Shown in pieces: positions 40,395 to 56,197 of a stretch of DNA of 64,000 nucleotides. Location: the NCBI GenBank assembly GCA_031409275.1, contig JANNXA010000044.1, forward strand, positions 1 through 64,000, in the 5' to 3' direction. Made by a program: the position numbers and the translations under genes. The notes under the pieces are model-generated. The model was given only the letters and a program-made list of their open reading frames with translations, was not told the origin of the DNA and did not search any database. Numbering within the stretch: the first letter of the stretch is position 1; each line of letters starts with the position of its first letter. This stretch comes from Planctomycetota bacterium (GTDB lineage: Bacteria; Planctomycetota; B15-G4; SIAN01).

Positions 40395-41342
40395 TCAGCG
40401 CGTTCGCGCGGCGAGGCGGCCGACCTCGGCCAGCACTTCCTGGTCGGCGTCGCTCGGCCAGTCGCCGATGACGCCGGTGTCGTAGTAGACGGTGACGACC
40501 CACGGCGCGCGACCCGGCGGCTTGATCCAGACCACGTCGTTGCACTTGACGGTCACGTCGTCGCCGCCGCCCGTGCCGGTCTTGTCACCGGCGACCCACT
40601 CGCTCGGCAGTCCCCGGCGCACACGGTCGGCGCCGGTCGTCGTCGCGATCATCCACTCGCGCAGCGTCTGCCGCGCCGCGGGCGCAAGCGCGCCGCCGAG
40701 CAGCCGCGCGACCAACTGCGCCATCGCGCGCGGGGTCGTCGTGTCGCGCACGTCGCCCGCGCGGACGTCGTTCATCTCCGGCTCGTAGCGGTCGAGCCGC
40801 GTGGTCGCGTCGCCATGCGCACGGCAAAAGGCGATGAACGCTGGAGGTCCGCCAACGTCGCGCAGCAGCAGATTGGCGGCGCCGTTGTCGCTGGTCGTCT
40901 GCGCTGCCTCGGCCAGCTCGGCGAGCGTCAACTCCGCCGCCGATTCGCCGCGCGCGGCGGCCGCATCGACGGCGGCTTGCGTGACCGGCGAATGCCCCAC
41001 CAGGTCGGCGGGTCCGACGCGCAGCCGCGTCTCGAGCGGCCGGCCACCGAGCGCTGCGCGGTCGAGGACCATCGCCGCTAGCACGAGTTTGAACGTCGAG
41101 CACATCGAGAAGCGCTCGTCGAGGCGATGGCCGCGAAGCGTGCCGTCGCCGGTGTCGAGCAGCGCGACCCCGAGCCGGCCGCCGCCTTCGAGTCGAGCGA
41201 GCGCGCGCTCGAGGTCGGTCGCGCTCGCGCCGTTCCGGTCGCTCGTGCCGATCGGATCGCTCTCGAAGGCGCGACAGCTCGCCAGTGCGGCCCCGGCCAG
41301 GAAGAGCAGGAAGTTGCGGCGGTCGACGTTCGCGCGGTTCAT
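40395..41342 (-). CDS. bla: Class A beta-lactamase with Tat-lipoprotein signal
   Basis: RRNFL...ALASC; RFSMCSTFK, SDN, RLDRYEPEMN, DTTTP, DKTGT. Confidence 0.95.
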   Translation of the reverse strand: MNRANVDRRNFLLFLAGAALASCRAFESDPIGTSDRNGASATDLERALARLEGGGRLGVALLDTGDGTLRGHRLDERFSMCSTFKLVLAAMVLDRAALGGRPLETRLRVGPADLVGHSPVTQAAVDAAAARGESAAELTLAELAEAAQTTSDNGAANLLLRDVGGPPAFIAFCRAHGDATTRLDRYEPEMNDVRAGDVRDTTTPRAMAQLVARLLGGALAPAARQTLREWMIATTTGADRVRRGLPSEWVAGDKTGTGGGDDVTVKCNDVVWIKPPGRAPWVVTVYYDTGVIGDWPSDADQEVLAEVGRLAARTR

Positions 41343-41467
41343 CGCGGCGAACGCTACGGCCGCCGCGCGTGCGTGTCGAGCGGCGGCGACGCGTGGAACA
41401 GGCGCGGCGCATCGCTCATGATCGCGTGCGAGTTCGACGAACCGTTCTTCGACGAGGCGAGCAGACG

Positions 41468-42316
41468 ATGGCGCTCCCGCTCTACGTGGTCGATGCATTC
41501 GCAGCGGAGCCGTACACCGGCGGGCCGGCCGGCGTGGTGCTGCTCGATCGACCGGCCGACGCGCGCTGGATGCAGCTCGTCGCGCGCGAGGTGAACCACG
41601 CCGAGACCGCTTTCGTCCATCCGGAGACGACGGCGGGCGGCGCCGCGTGGCGCCTGCGCTGGTTCACGCCGACTGTCGAAGTCGACCTCTGCGGCCACGC
41701 GACGCTCGCCGCCGCCCACGTCCTCTGGCAGAGCGGCCGAGTCGCCCCCACGTCGGCCGCGCGCTTCCTCACTCGCAGCGGCGAGCTGACGGCGCGGCGC
41801 GGCGACGCCGACGGTGCGATCGAGCTCGACTTCCCCGCGGAGCTGGCGCGCGAGGAGACGCCGCCCGCCGCGCTGCTACTCGCGCTGCGACTGCCGACAC
41901 CGCCGCGCTTCGTTGGCCGCAACCGCATGGACTGGCTGGTCGAGCTCGCCGAGCCCGACGCCGAAGCGACGCTGCGCGCGCTCGAGCCCGACCTCGCGCT
42001 GCTCGCGACGATCCCGACGCGCGGCGTGATCGTCACGTGCGCCGCGGCGCGCCAAGGGCCGATCGACTTCGTCTCGCGCTTCTTCGCCCCCGCCGCTGGC
42101 GTCCCCGAGGATCCGGTCACCGGCTCCGCCCACTGCGCGCTCGCCCCTCACTGGGCCGCGCGGTTGGGCCGCTCGACCCTCACCGGCTTCCAGGCGAGCG
42201 CGCGCGGCGGCACCGTCGGCGTCGAGCACCGCGGCGCGCGCGTCCTCCTGCGCGGCCGCGCCATCACGACGGTGAAGGGCGAGCTGCTGGCGGAGGAGTC
42301 GCGGGCGCCGGCGTGA
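41468..42316 (+). CDS. PhzF family epimerase/isomerase
   Basis: VDAF, ETAFV, LRWFTPTVEVDLCGHATLA, EDPVTGSAHC. Confidence 0.95.
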   Translation: MALPLYVVDAFAAEPYTGGPAGVVLLDRPADARWMQLVAREVNHAETAFVHPETTAGGAAWRLRWFTPTVEVDLCGHATLAAAHVLWQSGRVAPTSAARFLTRSGELTARRGDADGAIELDFPAELAREETPPAALLLALRLPTPPRFVGRNRMDWLVELAEPDAEATLRALEPDLALLATIPTRGVIVTCAAARQGPIDFVSRFFAPAAGVPEDPVTGSAHCALAPHWAARLGRSTLTGFQASARGGTVGVEHRGARVLLRGRAITTVKGELLAEESRAPA

Positions 42317-45418: not shown

Positions 45419-45639
45419 GAACGCTTCTCACCCACGATGCCCCCGCTCGCCACGAATCGGGGCGCATGGGGAAGGCGGCGGAGGATAGCGGGACCCGAGG
45501 GCAAGCGGGGAGTGGGGAGGGCGAGGGGCGGGAGGTCACCCTTTCGCGATTGGTGACGTCTAGCGGTGACGAGGGGGAAGTCGATGCGCTTGACGATCGC
45601 TTCGGCCGCCGGCCCTCGACACGATCGGGTTCTATCGCC

Positions 45640-47133
45640 GTGACCTCGCCACTCCGGTTGCTGCTCGATACGAACGTGCTCATCCCTCTCGAGCCGACGA
45701 CGCTCGAGGCGGTGGAGGAGCTCTCCCGACCTGCGCTCGACTTCGTTCGTCGCGCCCAAGCGGGCGGCGCGAAGCTGCTGCTGCATCCCGCTCAACGCCG
45801 CGACCTCGCTCGCGATCCGGTGCGCGATCGACGCCTTCTCCGACAGCTCCAGTTGCGCCGCTACAGCGAGCTCGAGCATCCGCCGGGGATCCCCGCCACG
45901 GTGACGGCCGCATGCGGCGTCGCGCCGGTCGACTCGAACGACTGGGTCGATCATCTGTTGCTCGCGGCGGTGGTGCACAACGCGGTCGACTTCCTCGTGA
46001 CCGAGGATCGCGGCATCCACGCCAAGGCCCGGCGCCTTGCCGTCGCCGATCGGGTCCTCGGAATCGACGACGCCGCCGCTCTCCATCCTCCGGCCGAGAC
46101 GTTGCCCGGTCGCTTGCCGACGAGCGTCCGGCAGACCGTCGCGCACGAGCTCTCGATCGACGATCCGATCCTCGAGTCGTTTCGCCGGGACTACCCCAAG
46201 TTCGATTCCTGGTGGGCGAACTGCCAGAAGGAAGCGCGCACCACCTTCGTCATCGACGGCGACCAGCACGGGGTCGCCGGAATGGCCGTCGTGCACCCCG
46301 AGAGCGATTCACCGGGTGGCGTGACCGGCAGGCTGCTGAAGCTCTGCAGCTTCAAGATCAGCGAGCGATTCTCCGGACGAAGGCTCGGCGAGCTGCTGCT
46401 GAAGTCCGTCCTGCGCCATGCCCAAGAGCGGGATTTCGATCACTGCTTCGTCACCGTTTTCCCGAAGCACGCCGGCCTCATCGCGCTGTTCGAGGACTTC
46501 GGTTTCGAGGAACGCGGGGATTGGGGTGAACGCGGAGAGAAGTGGTTTGTGAAGCCGCTACGGGAAAACGCGGTGCCGCGGGACCGGCTGGAGGCCCTGA
46601 GCGCCTCCGACTTCCACGTCTTGCTCGGCCCCGACCATTTCCGCCGCGACGTGAAGTGGTACCTCGTGCCGATCCAGCCGCGCTACTCCGACATCCTGCT
46701 GCAGGAGACCGCCGCACAGGGGGCGCTGTTCGCCACGCAACTTCCGTTCGGCAATGCGCTGCGGAAGGCGTACCTCTGCAATGCACAGATCAAGTCGCTC
46801 GAGCCTGGCGACGTGCTCGCGTTCTATCGGAGCGGCTCACGACAAGGAGTGATCGCGCTCGGTGTTCTCGAACGATCGATCAGGACGGCGTCAACGGAGG
46901 TGATCCACCAACTCGTCGCTCGTCGAACGGTCTACTCCGCGGAGGAGATCGAGGCGAGGCCCGTGAAGCCGGTCCTCGTGCTGCTCTTCCGCCACGCGCA
47001 CACGTTCCATCCCGAGCTACCGGCCGACAAGGCAAAGGAAGCCAAGTTGTTCCGCTCCGCGCCGCAGTCCATCATGCGCCTCGGCGCGGAGGGGGTCCGA
47101 TGGATCGTCGAGCAGATGGCGAAGTTGCGCTGA
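45640..47133 (+). CDS. PIN-GNAT-EVE/PUA-like fusion protein
   Basis: PIN: LLLDTNVLI...DWVDHLLL...FLVTEDRGI. GNAT: LKLCSFKISERFSGRRLGELLL...FEDFGF. PUA-like: VPIQPRY...KAYLC...PGDVLAFYRS. Start uncertain. Confidence 0.85.
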   Translation: MTSPLRLLLDTNVLIPLEPTTLEAVEELSRPALDFVRRAQAGGAKLLLHPAQRRDLARDPVRDRRLLRQLQLRRYSELEHPPGIPATVTAACGVAPVDSNDWVDHLLLAAVVHNAVDFLVTEDRGIHAKARRLAVADRVLGIDDAAALHPPAETLPGRLPTSVRQTVAHELSIDDPILESFRRDYPKFDSWWANCQKEARTTFVIDGDQHGVAGMAVVHPESDSPGGVTGRLLKLCSFKISERFSGRRLGELLLKSVLRHAQERDFDHCFVTVFPKHAGLIALFEDFGFEERGDWGERGEKWFVKPLRENAVPRDRLEALSASDFHVLLGPDHFRRDVKWYLVPIQPRYSDILLQETAAQGALFATQLPFGNALRKAYLCNAQIKSLEPGDVLAFYRSGSRQGVIALGVLERSIRTASTEVIHQLVARRTVYSAEEIEARPVKPVLVLLFRHAHTFHPELPADKAKEAKLFRSAPQSIMRLGAEGVRWIVEQMAKLR

Positions 47134-47552
47134 TCTCGGTCAAGCCCGAGTACGCCGAGCGGATCCTCGCGGGCAGCAAACAGGTCGAGTTCCGGCGCGC
47201 GGCGTTCGCCCGGAAGGTGACGCACCTCGTGCTCTACGCGACGAAGCCGACCGGTCGACTCGTCGCGCTCTGCGAGGTGTCGAGGGTGCATCGCGGCGCG
47301 CCCGCGGAGCTGTGGAAGAGCTTCGGTTCGGTCGGCGGGATCGGCGCCGATCGCTACTGGGCCTACTACCGCGGCGCGCCCCGCGCAGTGGCGATCGGCA
47401 TCGCTTCCGTGCGGCGTCTCGCGGAGGGGCTCACGCTGCGCGATCTCGGCATCGTCGGGCCGCCACCACAGAGCTACCGCTACGTCGATCGCGCACGAGC
47501 GGAACGGCTGCTGACGACCCCACCCAGGACCGGAGCGGTCGAAGGACGGTGA
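47100..47552 (+). CDS. ASCH domain protein
   Basis: LISVKPEYAERILAGSKQVEFRR (GxKxxExR), YATKP.G, PPQSYRY. Overlaps the upstream gene by 34 nt. Confidence 0.9.
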   Translation: MDRRADGEVALISVKPEYAERILAGSKQVEFRRAAFARKVTHLVLYATKPTGRLVALCEVSRVHRGAPAELWKSFGSVGGIGADRYWAYYRGAPRAVAIGIASVRRLAEGLTLRDLGIVGPPPQSYRYVDRARAERLLTTPPRTGAVEGR

Positions 47553-50102: not shown

Positions 50103-50870
50103 CTACTTCACCAGCCCCGCGGCTTCGACCGCGCGGCAGTACTTGCTCATGCGCTGCAGCTCGACGTTGTGGGAGTTGAGCGCGGCGCAGAGCCAGCTCG
50201 GCAGGATGCGGTCGAACTTCACTTCGAGCACGCACCACTCGGGCGGCATGAACCACTTGCCACGGGTCGGGTCGCCGCGCAGAGAGAAGTCGTGGGTGCG
50301 CCACTTGAGGTTGCGGTCGAGCGTGATGCGAAGGTCGCGGCGCCACGCGTCGAAGAAGGCGGCGCGGTTGTAGCTGACGATGACCTTTGGTTGCAGCCGC
50401 TCGCGCTTGGCCAGCACGTAGACCTCATCGAGGACCGAGTCGCCTGCCTCGTAGTGGCCGGCGCAGATCGCGCGGATGCGCTCCTCCGCCTGCGCCACCG
50501 GCAGGATCGAGCGTCGCTTGGCGACGCCGAGGTTCAGGCGCTGCTTGATCTCGATGAAGGCGTCGGGCGCATCGGCGCCGTAGGTGCGCACGCGCACCTT
50601 GCGGCGGAACTTCTCGCCGTCGAGCTTCTCCCAGTAGGCGTCGAACCCTGGCGAATCGAGGTAGAGCGAGGTGACCTTGTAGAAGCCGTCCGCTCCGGCG
50701 TTGGCGTCGCGCTTCACGTACGGCTCGATGGTGTCCAGCACCGCCTGCGCCTGCCGGTGATGCAGCACGTACTTCAACTCGTAGCGGTCGAAGCGCAGCT
50801 CGACGCCGCGCTTGGCCGCGGTGACCGGCGCCGCTTCGCTGCTCCCCGTCGACGACGGCAGCGCGCTCAT
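50103..50870 (-). CDS. VTC-domain (polyphosphate polymerase, CYTH/TTM fold) protein
   Basis: RYELKY, SLYLD, RRKVRVRTY, FIEIKQR, YNRAAF, RITLD, LEVKF, SKYC. Confidence 0.93.
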   Translation of the reverse strand: MSALPSSTGSSEAAPVTAAKRGVELRFDRYELKYVLHHRQAQAVLDTIEPYVKRDANAGADGFYKVTSLYLDSPGFDAYWEKLDGEKFRRKVRVRTYGADAPDAFIEIKQRLNLGVAKRRSILPVAQAEERIRAICAGHYEAGDSVLDEVYVLAKRERLQPKVIVSYNRAAFFDAWRRDLRITLDRNLKWRTHDFSLRGDPTRGKWFMPPEWCVLEVKFDRILPSWLCAALNSHNVELQRMSKYCRAVEAAGLVK

Positions 50871-53587
50871 GGCGTCCCCTCCACGGCCGGCTTCACCACG
50901 AGGCCCGCGCCCTTGCTCTTCTTCGGCAGCGAGAACTTGCCTTCGGTGACGCACGCCTCGAGCGTCAACGTCGACTCGGCGTCGATCTTCACGTCGGTCT
51001 TGTTGCCGCGCAGCGTGCAGCGCACCAGATGGCCGAGCCCGCCGCCTTCGTAGCGCCAGTTCTTGTCGTACGACGCCACGCCGGTCAGGCACTCCTCGAC
51101 GATCGTGTCGCGGATGCGCGGATCGGAGCCGTCCTTGATGCCGATGCCCGTGACACAACCCGCGAAGCGGCAATCGGAGAGCTCCGGGAACGAGCCCTCG
51201 CCGATCGAGATGCCCTTGTCGCCCGCCCCCACCACGGTCAGCCGCTCGACGTCGACGCGACCGGTCATCATGTCGAGCCCGTCGTTCAGCGGCCGCAGCA
51301 CCGTGATGTCGCGGATGGTGCCCTGGCACAGGTCGAAGTCGATGGCGTCGGCGATCGCGTCCTCGACGCGCACGCGCTCGAAAAGGACGTCATGGCACTT
51401 GCCGAGTCGCACCGTGTCGTCGCCGAGCAGGTTCGCTGCGAAGAAGCTGTCGCGCACGACCAGTCGATCGACGAGGTGCACCGAGAACATCCCGGAGTAG
51501 TAGAGGTAGCCGACGGTCGCTTCCGACCCGCCCACCATCGACACGTGGTCGAGCACGCTGCCATCGCAGCCGTGTCCTTGCAGCGCGATCACCCCGTACG
51601 GCTGCGCGGGATCGAGCCGCTCGAAACGCACGTCGCGCCAATCGACGCGCGACTGCAGCTGCAGCGAGACGCCCGGCCCGAGCTTCACCACGCTCCCGGC
51701 CGCGATCGAGAGCGACTCGCGCGGCCCGAGCTGCAGCGTCTCCTTCACTTCGACGACACCGCTCCATTCGAGCTGCCGCGGCGTCGGCGGCTCGGCGCGC
51801 CGCCAAGGGTGCACCGACTCGACGGCGAGGAAGCCGTTGGGCGCTCCCTCGTGCACTTCGATCGCGCCGCTGCCCACGGTTCGCTCGGCGCCGATGCCCA
51901 GGAGCCGCGGCAGCGCCGCATCGCCCACGCGCAGCAGGAACGGGCTCTCGAGCGCGGCGAGGCGCGTGAACTCGCGATGCTGCGAGAAGGTGTCCTGTCC
52001 CTCGGACGGCCGTTGCTGGTACGACGCGGTGAAGTCGCGCCCTGCCGGCAGCAGCACCGACGGATCGTCGAGGAGCAGTCGATGGCCTTCGACATGCGCC
52101 GCCACACGGCGATCCCCGAGGCTGATCGCGCCGTTGAAGTCGCGGTCCTCGTAGAGGTCGAACGCGGGCGGCGCCGTCTCGAAATCGAGCGCGACGAGGC
52201 GCAGCGACGCGACGGCGGTGGCGTGGAGGCGCAGGCGCGCGACGCCGTCGATCGGCGCGGCCTGCGCGAACGCGAGCTCCGCCACGGCGTGCTGCTGGCG
52301 GACCGTCTGGTGGCGCTCCTCGATCTTGCGGCGCACGCCGCGGAAGGCGAGTTCGAGCCAGCGGTCGAGCGACACGCTGGCGCGACGCAACGCCTGCTCG
52401 GCGCGATCGAGCACGGCGAGCTGCACGCGCGGCGTCGCTTCGCTGGCGAGCTGCGTGTCGATCAGCGCCGCCACCCGATCGAGGAAACGGGGGTCCTGCG
52501 CCAGTCGCAGGAAGAGGCGACTGGCCGTCGTCTCGACGCCCTGGCCCGCCGGCATGTTGAGCAGCGGATTCCACAGGTAGCCGGAGAGCTTTCCGGCCAG
52601 CAGGTCGAGGCCGATCTTCTGGTTGTGCGAAAGGTCGACGTGCTGGTCACCGTGGTAGCAGAGGATCGCGTAGTAGAGGGCGAAGCTCGGATCGAGCAGC
52701 GAGTCGAGCGCATCGAGTCCGTCAGGAGCTGGATTCGCCGTCGCATCCAGCAGGTCGGAGAGCCACGGCCGCCACGACTCGGGGTACTTGTTCCAGCGCG
52801 CTTCCTTCTCCCACAAGTAGGGATTCCACGACAGCTCCCACGACGAGGAGGAGGGCACGTCGGGCACGAAGAGCTCGCCGTAAAAGAGGTCGCCGGGCAT
52901 CTCGCCGACGCGACGCAGGAACGATTCGTCGACCTGCTCTTCCAGCAGGTAGACGCCCTCGTCCTCGAGGTTCACGTAGAGATGGACCAGACGCGTGAGC
53001 GGCGCCGGCAGACCGTGCGCGCGCGCCAGCTCGAAGGTGATGAGGCTCGCGAGGCGGTCTTCGAGCGGCGTCAGGTTCAGCACGCGCTGTCCGCCGACGA
53101 ACTCGCGTTTCTTGGTGCGCAGCTTCCATGACTTGCGCGCGAAGAAGTAGTTCTCCATGCGCTGGCCGCGCCAGTTGGCGTCGACCTCGAAGTTCTGGTC
53201 GCCGTTCACCGTCAGCACGCCGCGCTGCTTCGCGCGCGCCGATTCGGGGAGGTCGGCGGCGAGCGCGTCGATCGAGCTGCCGTCGACGCGCAGGTCGTAG
53301 ACGTCGACGCCGTCGTCCGGGGCCGCGGCGTCGACCGCGATCGCCGGCACCGGCCGCTTGAGCGGCAGGAAGCGGCGCGAGCGCGAGCCGAAGACGTCGC
53401 GAATCGAACGCTGCACCATCGTCCGCAGCGTGCCGACGCGCAGGTCGCGCACCAGTTCGCCGTGGAAATTGCGGATCTCTGCGTTCCAGAAGCTGCCGAG
53501 CGCGGCGATCCACAGCCACACCGACACCGCCAGGAACGGCAGCGTCAGCAGCACGACGTCGCGCAGCAGGTTCCGGGAGCGACGCAT
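50867..53587 (-). CDS. Membrane-anchored CotH-like kinase + right-handed beta-helix protein
   Basis: N-terminal TM; WRG...KSWKL, GLPAP...LYVN...GVYLLEEQVDESFL; C-terminal DAIDFD, DGLDM, DKGISIGEGS, GIGIKDGS repeats. ATGA overlap with the VTC gene. Confidence 0.88.
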   Translation of the reverse strand: MRRSRNLLRDVVLLTLPFLAVSVWLWIAALGSFWNAEIRNFHGELVRDLRVGTLRTMVQRSIRDVFGSRSRRFLPLKRPVPAIAVDAAAPDDGVDVYDLRVDGSSIDALAADLPESARAKQRGVLTVNGDQNFEVDANWRGQRMENYFFARKSWKLRTKKREFVGGQRVLNLTPLEDRLASLITFELARAHGLPAPLTRLVHLYVNLEDEGVYLLEEQVDESFLRRVGEMPGDLFYGELFVPDVPSSSSWELSWNPYLWEKEARWNKYPESWRPWLSDLLDATANPAPDGLDALDSLLDPSFALYYAILCYHGDQHVDLSHNQKIGLDLLAGKLSGYLWNPLLNMPAGQGVETTASRLFLRLAQDPRFLDRVAALIDTQLASEATPRVQLAVLDRAEQALRRASVSLDRWLELAFRGVRRKIEERHQTVRQQHAVAELAFAQAAPIDGVARLRLHATAVASLRLVALDFETAPPAFDLYEDRDFNGAISLGDRRVAAHVEGHRLLLDDPSVLLPAGRDFTASYQQRPSEGQDTFSQHREFTRLAALESPFLLRVGDAALPRLLGIGAERTVGSGAIEVHEGAPNGFLAVESVHPWRRAEPPTPRQLEWSGVVEVKETLQLGPRESLSIAAGSVVKLGPGVSLQLQSRVDWRDVRFERLDPAQPYGVIALQGHGCDGSVLDHVSMVGGSEATVGYLYYSGMFSVHLVDRLVVRDSFFAANLLGDDTVRLGKCHDVLFERVRVEDAIADAIDFDLCQGTIRDITVLRPLNDGLDMMTGRVDVERLTVVGAGDKGISIGEGSFPELSDCRFAGCVTGIGIKDGSDPRIRDTIVEECLTGVASYDKNWRYEGGGLGHLVRCTLRGNKTDVKIDAESTLTLEACVTEGKFSLPKKSKGAGLVVKPAVEGTP

Positions 53588-53588
53588 C

Positions 53589-54692
53589 TCAGTCGCCCCC
53601 TTCCGCGGGAGCGAGGTTCGCGCGCGCCTTGCGGATCGTGCGCTGCGCCTTCGCCGACAGCTTCGGCGCGGCACACGAGTACGTCAGCGTCACACGCGCC
53701 ACTTCATCGCCCGGCACGCCGGTGAAGAGCTCCGCGTAGGCGTTCACGCCGGAACCTTCGCGATGGAGGTAGCCGATCCTGGGCAGACGGTCCTCGACCC
53801 GCCCATCGCGCCGCTCGACGGCCATCGCATCGATCGTGAAGCCGTCCCACAGCTGATCGAGCCGCAGCTGCACCACCAGCTCGTCATGCCAGGGCCACGG
53901 CTCGAACATGGCCGCCGGGAACTCGACGCTGCAACGCTCGCCGCGCGGCATCCCCCACTTCTCTTCGTGGCGAAAGAAGCGGCCATGCTCGACCGGGATG
54001 CCCACCGCGCCGAGCACCTTGCGCTCGAGCGACGAGCGCGGGATGCCGACCTTCAGCGTCGCCTTGGGCGCGGCGCGAATCAGGGCCCGCTCCCATTCAT
54101 CAGCAACCCAGCCGATCTCCGCGAACGCGTTGATCTCGCCAAGGCACGCCAGGTAGTCCTCGATCACGCCAGGGTGATGCAACGTCAGCTCGAAGGCGCG
54201 GCGCAGCGATTTCGCGGCGTCGGCGTACTCGGCCTCCGACTCGAGCGCGCGCCCTTGCGCCCACCAGAGCGGGTAGTCCAGCGGCAGCCGCTCGAGCAGC
54301 GGCGTCAGCGCTTCGGCGCCACGCTTGGCGCGGCCCTCGCGAGTGTGGAGTTCGGCCAGCAGGACTCCGGCGTCGCTGACCGCATGCGACCAGAGCTGCG
54401 CGGGCTGGATCTTCGGGTGCTGGGCGAGGAAGCGTTCGAGACGGACGCGGGCCGCCGCCACTCCGCCATCGCCCGCCCCCGCCTCGACGCGCGCCGCCGC
54501 GACCTCCTCGAAGGTCCGCTCGTAGAACCAGGCGCGCGCGGCGATCGTGAGGCCGAGATCGACGTCGTCGGGAACGAATGCGACGTAGGCCCACAACCCG
54601 CCGCCCAACACGAGGACGAGCAGGAGGTAGAGCGCCGCCAGCCAGCGCCGATGCCGGTAGGCGAGCGTGCGGAGATGGAGGAGCGTGGCCAA
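53589..54692 (-). CDS. Membrane-anchored TPR-containing protein
   Basis: N-terminal TM helix; TPR-like PLDYPLWWAQGRALESEAEYADAAKSLRRAFEL. TTG start uncertain. Confidence 0.72.
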   Translation of the reverse strand: MATLLHLRTLAYRHRRWLAALYLLLVLVLGGGLWAYVAFVPDDVDLGLTIAARAWFYERTFEEVAAARVEAGAGDGGVAAARVRLERFLAQHPKIQPAQLWSHAVSDAGVLLAELHTREGRAKRGAEALTPLLERLPLDYPLWWAQGRALESEAEYADAAKSLRRAFELTLHHPGVIEDYLACLGEINAFAEIGWVADEWERALIRAAPKATLKVGIPRSSLERKVLGAVGIPVEHGRFFRHEEKWGMPRGERCSVEFPAAMFEPWPWHDELVVQLRLDQLWDGFTIDAMAVERRDGRVEDRLPRIGYLHREGSGVNAYAELFTGVPGDEVARVTLTYSCAAPKLSAKAQRTIRKARANLAPAEGGD

Positions 54693-54710
54693 GCGGCGCT
54701 CGCGGCGCGG

Positions 54711-55406
54711 CTAGAGCTGAATCTGCGAATGGCCCATCACGAGCTGCGCATGGACCGATCCATGCACGGCGCGCAACGCAGCCAGCAGCGCCTGCTCCCC
54801 GCCCGCCTTGCGCGGCGTCACCGACCAGACCACTTCGACCTTGCCCGAGCCGTCACTATCGACGGAGAGCAGATCGGAGGCCTGCAGATGCGCGTAGAAG
54901 GCCTCGTTGAAGACGGTGTGGTAATCGACCTTCTCGTCGACCAGCAGCTTGAGCAGCAGCTCGACGTTCGGACGCGCGCCGACGTTGAAGCGCGCGAGGA
55001 AGTAGATCATCGCGCTGACCAGCAGCGTGAAGATCAGCGCGACGGCACCGAAGCCGGTGCCGCACGCCATGCCGATCGCGGTGGTGAGGAAGTAGAAGGC
55101 GACATCGCGACTCTCCTTCACCGCGTTGCGGAAGCGGATGATGGAGAGCGCACCCACCAGGCTGAAGGCGCGCGCGATGTTGGTGCCGATGATCCCCATC
55201 ATCAGCGAGACGACCACCGCCATGATGATCATGGTGTGGACGGACGACTGCGAGTAGGACGGGCCGGCGTGCGTCATCTTGTAGACGTAGCCGATAAACA
55301 TCGAGAGCAGGAACGCCCAGATGACGGCGCGCAGCATGTCGAGCACCGGCAAGGTGTCGACGAACCCGCTCGTGGGAAGCAGTTGGTGGAAGAAGTCGGA
55401 AAGCAC
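54711..55406 (-). CDS. DUF4956 family (MgtC-like) membrane protein
   Basis: IGTNIARAFSLVGALSIIRFRNAVKESRDVAFYF...IGMACGTG plus ACT-like C-terminus. Confidence 0.93.
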   Translation of the reverse strand: MLSDFFHQLLPTSGFVDTLPVLDMLRAVIWAFLLSMFIGYVYKMTHAGPSYSQSSVHTMIIMAVVVSLMMGIIGTNIARAFSLVGALSIIRFRNAVKESRDVAFYFLTTAIGMACGTGFGAVALIFTLLVSAMIYFLARFNVGARPNVELLLKLLVDEKVDYHTVFNEAFYAHLQASDLLSVDSDGSGKVEVVWSVTPRKAGGEQALLAALRAVHGSVHAQLVMGHSQIQL

Positions 55407-55519: not shown

Positions 55520-56197
55520 ATGCGCGTCCTGCCTGCCCTCTTCGCCGTCGCCCTTGCAGCGGCCGCGCGCGACTCGACGACGGAAGACTTCGAGCAGGCG
55601 CCGCTGGAACAGTGCCCGCCAGGATTCACCGCGGCGACGACACTCGGTCGTCCGGAGCTGAAGGCGGAGCAGGCGGTCTGGCAGATCGCGGCCGACACCG
55701 CCGCCCCGTCCGGCAAGCAGGTCGTGCGACTGCTGCGGAGCGCCAACCGCGACGAGCTCTTCAACCTCCTGCTGCGCGACGCCGTCCCGCCGGCGGACGT
55801 CGCGCTGTCGGTGCGTCTGCGCGCCGATGGCGGCGAAGAGGACCGCGGCGGCGGCGTGTTGTGGCGCGCGGTCGACGCCCAGAACTACTACGTCACTCGC
55901 TGGAACCCGCTCGAGAAGAACCTGCGCGTCTATCGCGTCGTCGATGGCAAGCGCGTGCAGCTGCAGTCGGTGCCGATCGAAGCCGACGCCAGGACGTGGC
56001 ACACGCTTGCGGTGGTGATGCGCGGCCGCGTGATCGAAGTCTCGTTCGATGGCACCAAGGCGGCATCGTGCGCGGACCCGACGTTTGCCGCCGCCGGCAA
56101 GGTCGGGTTGTGGACGCGCTCGAACGCCGTCAGCTCGTTCGACGACCTGGTGGTGGGCGAGGCTCCGCAGCTGCCGCCCATCCGCTTTCCTAGGTGA
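55520..56197 (+). CDS. Secreted concanavalin-like (DUF1080-like) domain protein
   Basis: GEEDRGGGVLWRAVDAQNYYVTRWNPLE.N.RVY, WHTL.V, GKVGLWT...SSFDDL. Confidence 0.8.
   Translation: MRVLPALFAVALAAAARDSTTEDFEQAPLEQCPPGFTAATTLGRPELKAEQAVWQIAADTAAPSGKQVVRLLRSANRDELFNLLLRDAVPPADVALSVRLRADGGEEDRGGGVLWRAVDAQNYYVTRWNPLEKNLRVYRVVDGKRVQLQSVPIEADARTWHTLAVVMRGRVIEVSFDGTKAASCADPTFAAAGKVGLWTRSNAVSSFDDLVVGEAPQLPPIRFPR

Follow-up and report, generated by a model that had tools for sequence, protein, structure and literature searches.

A planctomycete VTC-DUF4956-CotH operon as a candidate polyphosphate-fed phosphorylation module of the cell envelope

Genes for a CotH protein, a polyphosphate (polyP) polymerase and a DUF4956 protein have been described as accessory to the pel loci of Gram-positive bacteria (bioRxiv 10.1101/768473), and such genes are also listed for a locus of Clostridium perfringens (PMC2879425). 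The present study concerns a four-gene operon with these three families in a 64,000-nucleotide stretch of DNA from a Planctomycetota bacterium (the window: positions 1 to 64,000 of contig JANNXA010000044.1, assembly GCA_031409275.1). In order of transcription on the minus strand, the operon encodes a DUF4956 membrane protein, a membrane-anchored TPR protein, a membrane-anchored CotH/beta-helix protein and a VTC enzyme (Table 1). An original prediction had proposed that these proteins use polyP for phosphorylation outside the cytoplasm. Such a module is considered here as a tentative reading, and the locus is first compared with the systems closest to it.

The pel accessory genes SIR_1594-1592 of Streptococcus intermedius contain the same three families contiguously, with a secreted CotH, a cytoplasmic VTC protein and a membrane protein of the MgtC-plus-ACT type. 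CotH, VTC and DUF4956 of the window all score above the Pfam cut-off and are also contiguous in one operon, whereas no pel locus surrounds them (flanking open reading frames (ORFs) judged by eye), the gene order differs and a TPR gene is added. While the pel accessory CotH has FN3, the window CotH is membrane-anchored with a beta-helix, and the Asp of its WD motif is replaced by Asn. The gene set as such is not new, having appeared in print, and the window operon represents a variant of it. The authors of PMC12345266 report that they found the trio nowhere outside pel loci; by the genome counts given below, it is widespread outside them. A mechanism for the trio was not found in the literature searched, the coverage of which was incomplete and left most subscription journals outside: the available part of PMC10657179 holds nothing on bacterial VTC, and 'VTC' in PMC6514570 denotes an unrelated domain.

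With the yeast VTC complex (Vtc4/Vtc3/Vtc1; structures 3g3q, 8i6v and 7ytj), the operon shares a homologous tunnel domain with polymerase residues and a genetic tie to a small membrane partner that has conserved basic residues. In contrast to yeast, the window enzyme is a stand-alone protein of 255 amino acids (aa) with no domain other than VTC; it has neither an SPX domain nor a membrane segment, and it retains E31; its membrane partner is MgtC-like rather than DUF202-like, and an outward-facing, kinase-like partner is present. A VTC-like way of working is what we infer for the operon, which falls outside the VTC complex by its membrane subunit and by the lack of an SPX domain. The spore-coat CotH of Bacillus (5jd9, 5jda) has the same fold, an equivalent of the catalytic Asp (D318 of the window protein), the HN motif and the adenine-clamp aromatics; the planctomycete protein differs in its membrane anchor, in its fused beta-sandwich and beta-helix and in the Asn at the second essential Asp. 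MgtC/SapB proteins, which are linked to phosphate homeostasis in Salmonella, are homologous to the DUF4956 protein over the membrane and ACT domains. The latter differs in its motif ARAFxLVGALSIIRFR, in scoring below the MgtC Pfam cut-off and in being tied to VTC genes.

The original prediction had called for a survey of co-occurrence, and the three families were found to be tightly co-inherited, unlinked CotH genes included. In 151 genomes of the same phylum that were at least 90% complete, VTC was present in 41, CotH in 40 and all three families in 36; DUF4956 was counted in 40 genomes, with three of these genomes or hits near or below the cut-off and 38 genomes passing it. VTC occurred together with DUF4956 in 39 genomes and with CotH in 36, compared to 10.9 expected by chance, while the control pair of VTC and PPK1 was observed in 25 genomes with 24.7 expected. 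DUF4956 was located within 6 kb of VTC at 47 of 57 VTC loci. After five second pieces of one gene had been dropped, 140 CotH hits remained, 50 of them within 10 kb of VTC. Of the 90 hits that were more than 10 kb away from any VTC gene, 85 were in VTC-positive genomes. Such unlinked CotH genes, of which a genome may hold as many as 13, were present in 25 of the 41 VTC genomes and in 4 of the 110 VTC-negative ones (19 and 4 genomes, respectively, when restricted to hits more than 15 kb from a contig start). Since unlinked CotH genes are also nearly confined to VTC genomes, the link goes beyond a shared operon. In a second phylum, represented by 121 genomes centred on an Anaerolineae genome (that of locus L012), VTC was found in 8 genomes, DUF4956 above cut-off in 7, all with VTC, and CotH in 6, five of them with VTC. 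Three of 14 control genomes carried all three families, including those of Bacteroides thetaiotaomicron and Corynebacterium glutamicum; B. subtilis, the CotH of which works in the spore coat, lacks both VTC and DUF4956. It is very probable that VTC, DUF4956 and CotH share one pathway.

Gene order was compared in 14 related loci, chosen as longer ones and including two duplicates (L045 of L007 and L048 of L009). Because all four genes keep the same order in eight of them (L028, L030, L032, L034, L035, L044, L045, L048), the arrangement is not due to chance. L036 is truncated by the contig start. In the other five loci (L039, L040, L041, L046, L047), CotH/beta-helix and VTC genes are present and the TPR profile found no match; DUF4956 occurs in four of these, in varying order. 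The closest VTC relatives showed 73-90% identity, and the CotH/beta-helix profile matched in 7 of 42 genomes of the class (E<=1e-20).

The VTC protein (Pfam E=2.5e-44) is predicted to be soluble, as anticipated, since no hydrophobic segment was seen by hydropathy. A profile of 96 VTC sequences matched only Vtc2, Vtc3 and Vtc4 among solved structures (10/10; best 3g3q, E=9e-21). Eleven residues, R29, K33, R93, R95, K109, Y167, R169, R181, E216, K218 and K243, are invariant in 96/96 homologues and align with R196, K200, R264, R266, K281, Y359, R361, R373, E426, K428 and K458 of Vtc4 (yeast numbers derived from profile-alignment offsets); the catalytic residues of the Vtc4-type tunnel domain are thus present. 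In hydrolases of the triphosphate tunnel metalloenzyme (TTM) type, four Glu form an acidic patch that is required and provides a second metal site. Vtc4 lacks this patch, and K458 is catalytic in the polymerase and dispensable in the hydrolase (PMC4641920). By sequence alignment, basic residues occupy three of these positions in the window enzyme (R29, K118, K218), and the fourth is acidic (E31). As the Vtc4 catalytic residues are kept and three of four hydrolase Glu positions are basic, the enzyme is likely to have polymerase-type chemistry, in line with its proposed role as polyP polymerase. A function as substitute for PPK1 was considered and rejected, since VTC and PPK1 are distributed independently and the window genome has PPK1; by the same token, VTC is not needed there for ordinary storage polyP.

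The DUF4956 protein (Pfam E=3e-14, with a weak MgtC match below cut-off) was modelled by AlphaFold2 (AF2) with a mean predicted local distance difference test (pLDDT) score of 91 as five membrane helices plus an ACT domain, which bears out the multi-spanning membrane protein that had been proposed. Three parts are predicted to lie inside, loop 1, loop 3 and the ACT domain: their mean K+R values, averaged over the family, are 2.0, 3.8 and 2.3, as compared to 0.4-0.9 elsewhere. R91 and R93 of the RFR motif, which are predicted to face the cytoplasm, are invariant (105/105), whereas R79 is found in 94/105 sequences; R79 and the RFR pair lie at opposite predicted ends of a helix of small residues. 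The channel of yeast VTC is lined by basic residues (PMC9911596), and the arginine placement in DUF4956 would suit an anion path. The odds that DUF4956 itself is the conduit are put slightly short of even. Prediction of a complex of three DUF4956 proteins and VTC gave a best score of 0.22, below the mark of 0.32 (controls were not folded).

The CotH/beta-helix protein (Pfam CotH E=4.6e-12, Beta_helix E=9.5e-8) comprises a CotH domain at about residues 95-435, a beta-sandwich linker and a right-handed beta-helix at about 600-880. A single N-terminal hydrophobic segment follows four arginines, and by hydropathy the remainder is predicted to be periplasmic. Both the anchored beta-helix architecture and the predicted placement of CotH outside the cytoplasm (N-in/C-out) agree with the original prediction. 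The profile matched B. cereus CotH 5jd9 (E=2.5e-12), and Foldseek with the AF2 model returned 5jda (E=1.7e-10), followed by beta-helix glycanases and tailspikes. R140, E216, D220, Y236, D318, H321, N322 and W339 of the CotH site are kept. Among 18 close homologues, E216, D220, Y236, D314, H316, H321 and N322 are present in all, and D318 and W339 in 17.

The TPR protein was described beforehand as membrane-anchored and as the scaffold of a complex. Its anchor stands: a single N-terminal hydrophobic segment preceded by arginines is predicted to leave the TPR-like region (residues ~60-205) and a C-terminal part of ~150 aa without family match facing the periplasm. For the window protein, the TPR assignment is sub-threshold (E=0.018); it comes from the relatives, TPR_16 being matched in 10 of 14 family members (E<=0.01). 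An Atlas search found TPR look-alikes for the homologue P0027, and no usable match for its C-terminal region (residues 200-345). Since five related loci show no TPR-profile match, the gene is accessory, an optional and lineage-specific partner. This lineage-limited occurrence does not support the scaffold as it was written, and such a role is a guess.

The periplasm is not known to hold a regular pool of ATP. In the reading proposed here, to which a rough probability of 0.4 is given, soluble VTC would polymerise phosphate from ATP in the cytoplasm, the MgtC-like DUF4956 protein would pass the phosphoryl donor across the inner membrane, and on the outer side the anchored CotH/beta-helix protein would spend it on phosphorylating a glycan or a protein of the envelope. 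Given a polymerase-type enzyme on the inside, a membrane partner that is obligate and bears invariant arginines, and exported kinases that depend on the two, a phosphoryl supply line is the simplest account of the gene set. A glycan setting was counted in its favour because L039, L041 and L030 adjoin glycosyltransferase or epimerase genes and, in print, the trio adjoins pel operons. That the donor would be bare polyP and not linked to a nucleotide is only weakly suggested. A wider proposal, that stand-alone VTC and a Vtc1-unrelated, MgtC-family channel form a coupled polyP synthase-translocase feeding all exported CotH kinases of non-sporulating bacteria, would explain why unlinked cotH is nearly confined to VTC-positive genomes; this generalisation is doubtful.

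Several observations weigh against the polyP-fed module. DUF4956 aligned with MgtC (19 sequences) by hhalign with a probability of 98% over 194 columns and both domains, as against 1% with bacterial DUF202 (6 sequences only). The protein thus belongs to the MgtC superfamily, with its membrane domain and C-terminal ACT domain. Membrane subunits of the Vtc1 type are DUF202 proteins, and DUF202 was matched neither in the DUF4956 protein nor in the window genome. DUF4956 as a Vtc1 homologue was rejected on these grounds. The split VTC synthase/translocon of the original prediction is not borne out as written: DUF4956 is a full-length MgtC homologue and not a split-off Vtc1 subunit, 'split VTC' is at best an analogy, and any channel role would be convergent. 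A fold search with the DUF4956 model matched only the ACT domain, with no Vtc1 chain among the matches listed and the membrane part barely tested, so that this search speaks neither for nor against a Vtc1 relationship; the DUF4956 profile matched nothing under E=0.1 among solved structures. MgtC has been described as an inhibitor that limits phosphate uptake, not as a polymer channel (PMC7980370). In S. intermedius, deletion of DUF4956 or CotH cuts aggregation in sputum medium by more than 50%, which is not reported for the VTC deletion in the available text, and Pel is raised in the DUF4956 deletion and lowered in the CotH deletion (PMC12345266). A linear pathway predicts like phenotypes, and the differing ones weigh against it. 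Glycan-synthesis genes do not adjoin the window operon.

A rival reading is a trans-membrane regulatory module that exports no polymer. CotH would sense or modify a target outside, DUF4956 would be an MgtC-like regulator with the ACT domain as ligand sensor, and VTC would make cytoplasmic polyP or another phosphorylated signal tuning the synthesis of envelope polysaccharide. MgtC homology over both domains, the ACT domain, the opposite Pel changes and the Asp-to-Asn replacement in CotH all fit, and the authors of the S. intermedius preprint (published as PMC12345266) suggest that polyP stays cytoplasmic. The regulatory module leaves the near-confinement of unlinked CotH to VTC genomes unexplained, and some VTC-DUF4956 pairs stand with adaptor-like and outer-membrane-duct-like genes (C16 of the window genome, L014), which suggests export; it is considered unlikely.

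The genome counts have their own limits, in that contig breaks in fragmented assemblies inflate the number of 'unlinked' CotH genes and related genomes are not independent, so that counts are given without P values. CotH is missing from five of the 41 VTC genomes, and in five genomes with CotH no VTC was found even with a purpose-built profile, a search run without a positive control; one of these five has DUF4956. Exceptions to the dependence are L086-L090 (genomes G004, G065, G126 and G272), CotH genes, several of them with signal-like N-termini, whose genomes yielded no VTC.

The CotH site bears on the identity of the donor. In B. subtilis CotH, the variants D228Q and D251A are inactive, and Tyr142 and Trp245 clamp adenine (10.1101/469122; residue roles taken second-hand and numbering mapped here). 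The catalytic Asp D228 corresponds to D318, which is kept in 17/18 homologues. At the position of D251, the WD-motif Asp that we take to bind metal, the window protein has N340 (Asn in 16, Asp in 1 and a gap in 1 of the 18 homologues). Since more distant beta-helix CotHs mostly keep this Asp, the change is particular to the window clade, and given the strong conservation elsewhere in the site, a weakened or altered CotH is likelier than a decayed one. Whether D314 or H316 replaces the lost Asp cannot be told from the AF2 model, since the catalytic loop 317-322 has a pLDDT below 50; the Asn-substituted protein might perhaps still be active. Both adenine-clamp aromatics are kept (Y236 in 18/18, W339 in 17/18), which suggests a nucleotide ligand and makes a nucleotide a more fitting donor than bare polyP. 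An active CotH kinase is supported by the fold and the catalytic D318 and not by the second essential Asp.

If the wiring were the same with another donor, this would be ATP or an adenosine-capped polyphosphate, and CotH would remain an adenine-nucleotide kinase. Y236 and W339 correspond to Tyr142 and Trp245, between which adenine is held in CotH-AMP, and this points to such a donor, as do two acidic residues that depart from or add to the Vtc4 pattern: E31, invariant in 96/96 sequences where Vtc4 has Thr, so that the chemistry may differ, and E107. The clamp is not universal, however, several VTC-linked CotHs lacking the Tyr or the Trp, and a nucleotide donor is judged quite improbable. About as improbable is that exported polyP is itself the final product, serving as a polyanion at the surface or as a store of cations; the CotH of this clade would then be a catalytically weakened protein that binds or processes, and its acidic beta-helix would hold the polymer or a glycan. 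This reading would account for the Asp-to-Asn change in the window clade while sister clades keep Asp, for the 23 of 57 VTC-DUF4956 loci without a nearby CotH and for the Cthe_2159 beta-helix protein that takes the place of CotH in L012; against it stand the strong constraint on the rest of the CotH site (seven residues in 18/18, D318 in 17/18) and the presence of CotH somewhere in 36 of 41 VTC genomes. A triphosphatase or cyclase activity of VTC without polymer, as in other bacterial tunnel metalloenzymes, is very improbable, despite the retained E31 of the hydrolase patch and the precedent of AtTTM3, where fold and tunnel residues alone misled (PMC4641920), given the three basic patch positions, the invariant K458 equivalent and, among solved structures, the exclusive matches to Vtc2, Vtc3 and Vtc4.

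The four genes of the operon are co-oriented and tightly packed, and their junctions were confirmed by ORF coordinates and sequence. A gap of 18 nt separates DUF4956 from TPR, the TPR/CotH junction reads TGA (53591-53589), G, ATG (53587-53585), and CotH and VTC overlap by ATGA (50870-50867).

Table 1. Genes of the operon in order of transcription (window coordinates)
Product	Coordinates	Strand	Start and length	Evidence
DUF4956 protein	55406-54711	(-)	GTG start, 231 aa	Pfam; AF2 model; ACT-fold matches; hhalign to MgtC; conservation across 105 sequences
TM-TPR (membrane-anchored TPR) protein	54692-53589	(-)	TTG start, 367 aa	Hydropathy; TPR matches in relatives; 13 homologues
TM-CotH/beta-helix protein	53587-50867	(-)	ATG start, 906 aa	Pfam, profile, AF2, Foldseek
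VTC enzyme	50870-50103	(-)	ATG start, 255 aa	Pfam, profile match to yeast Vtc4

The flanking ORFs resemble a chemoreceptor gene, a gene for a secreted protein without assigned role, a Nudix-like gene and an endonuclease/phosphatase-like gene; these labels were given by eye, and a Pfam scan of the flanks covered two neighbours and the chemoreceptor. A scan for promoters and terminators returned no promoter-like site and four terminator-like sites (2.1 expected), none at the operon end, and an NCBIfam scan gave no match above cut-off. A look-up of RNA runs listed none. At 55520-56197 (+), a divergent ORF encodes a 225-aa protein with a signal-like N-terminus and without Pfam or NCBIfam match; a similar gene sits upstream of DUF4956 in L007, L009 and L032. 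Elsewhere in the window, and judged by eye, a 555-aa ORF with the look of a PIN-plus-GNAT fusion is followed by an ASCH-like ORF (45466-47552 (+)), and an ORF at 40395-41498 (+) resembles a class A beta-lactamase with a Tat-like leader.

Variants of the gene set occur in the window genome and beyond. A second VTC-DUF4956 pair on contig C16 of the window genome G000 (G000:C16:131866-136856 (-)) is followed by adaptor-like, outer-membrane-efflux-like and metallo-beta-lactamase-fold genes (by eye), with no CotH within 20 kb. In L014, such a pair lies near an adaptor-like gene (HlyD_D23 below cut-off) and an outer-membrane-duct-like gene. The trio is split in the same genome into VTC and CotH without DUF4956 (G000:C22:269238-271707) and DUF4956 and CotH without VTC (G000:C40:16761-19159); the CotHs on C22, C40 and C16 carry P[HS]GMD instead of the WD motif. 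At L012:11562-13469, the VTC-DUF4956 pair is followed by the Cthe_2159 beta-helix protein, and the L012 genome holds a second, CotH-linked set. L039, L040 and L041 are of low GC content (31-38%), with CotH/beta-helix and VTC near glycosyltransferases or a sulfatase; L039 and L040 also carry DUF4956, and L040 in addition DUF655, an archaeal family.

Because its CotH is atypical, the window locus is a poor model of the module, which is present in 41 of the 151 genomes sampled in the phylum, about one in four. Many of these genomes hold several genes for exported CotH kinases without a known phosphate donor. If VTC and DUF4956 do supply this donor, the question of how kinases work outside the bacterial cytoplasm would be answered. 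In that case, DUF4956 would represent the first transport role for an MgtC-family protein, and VTC a second, PPK-independent polyP synthase in prokaryotes.

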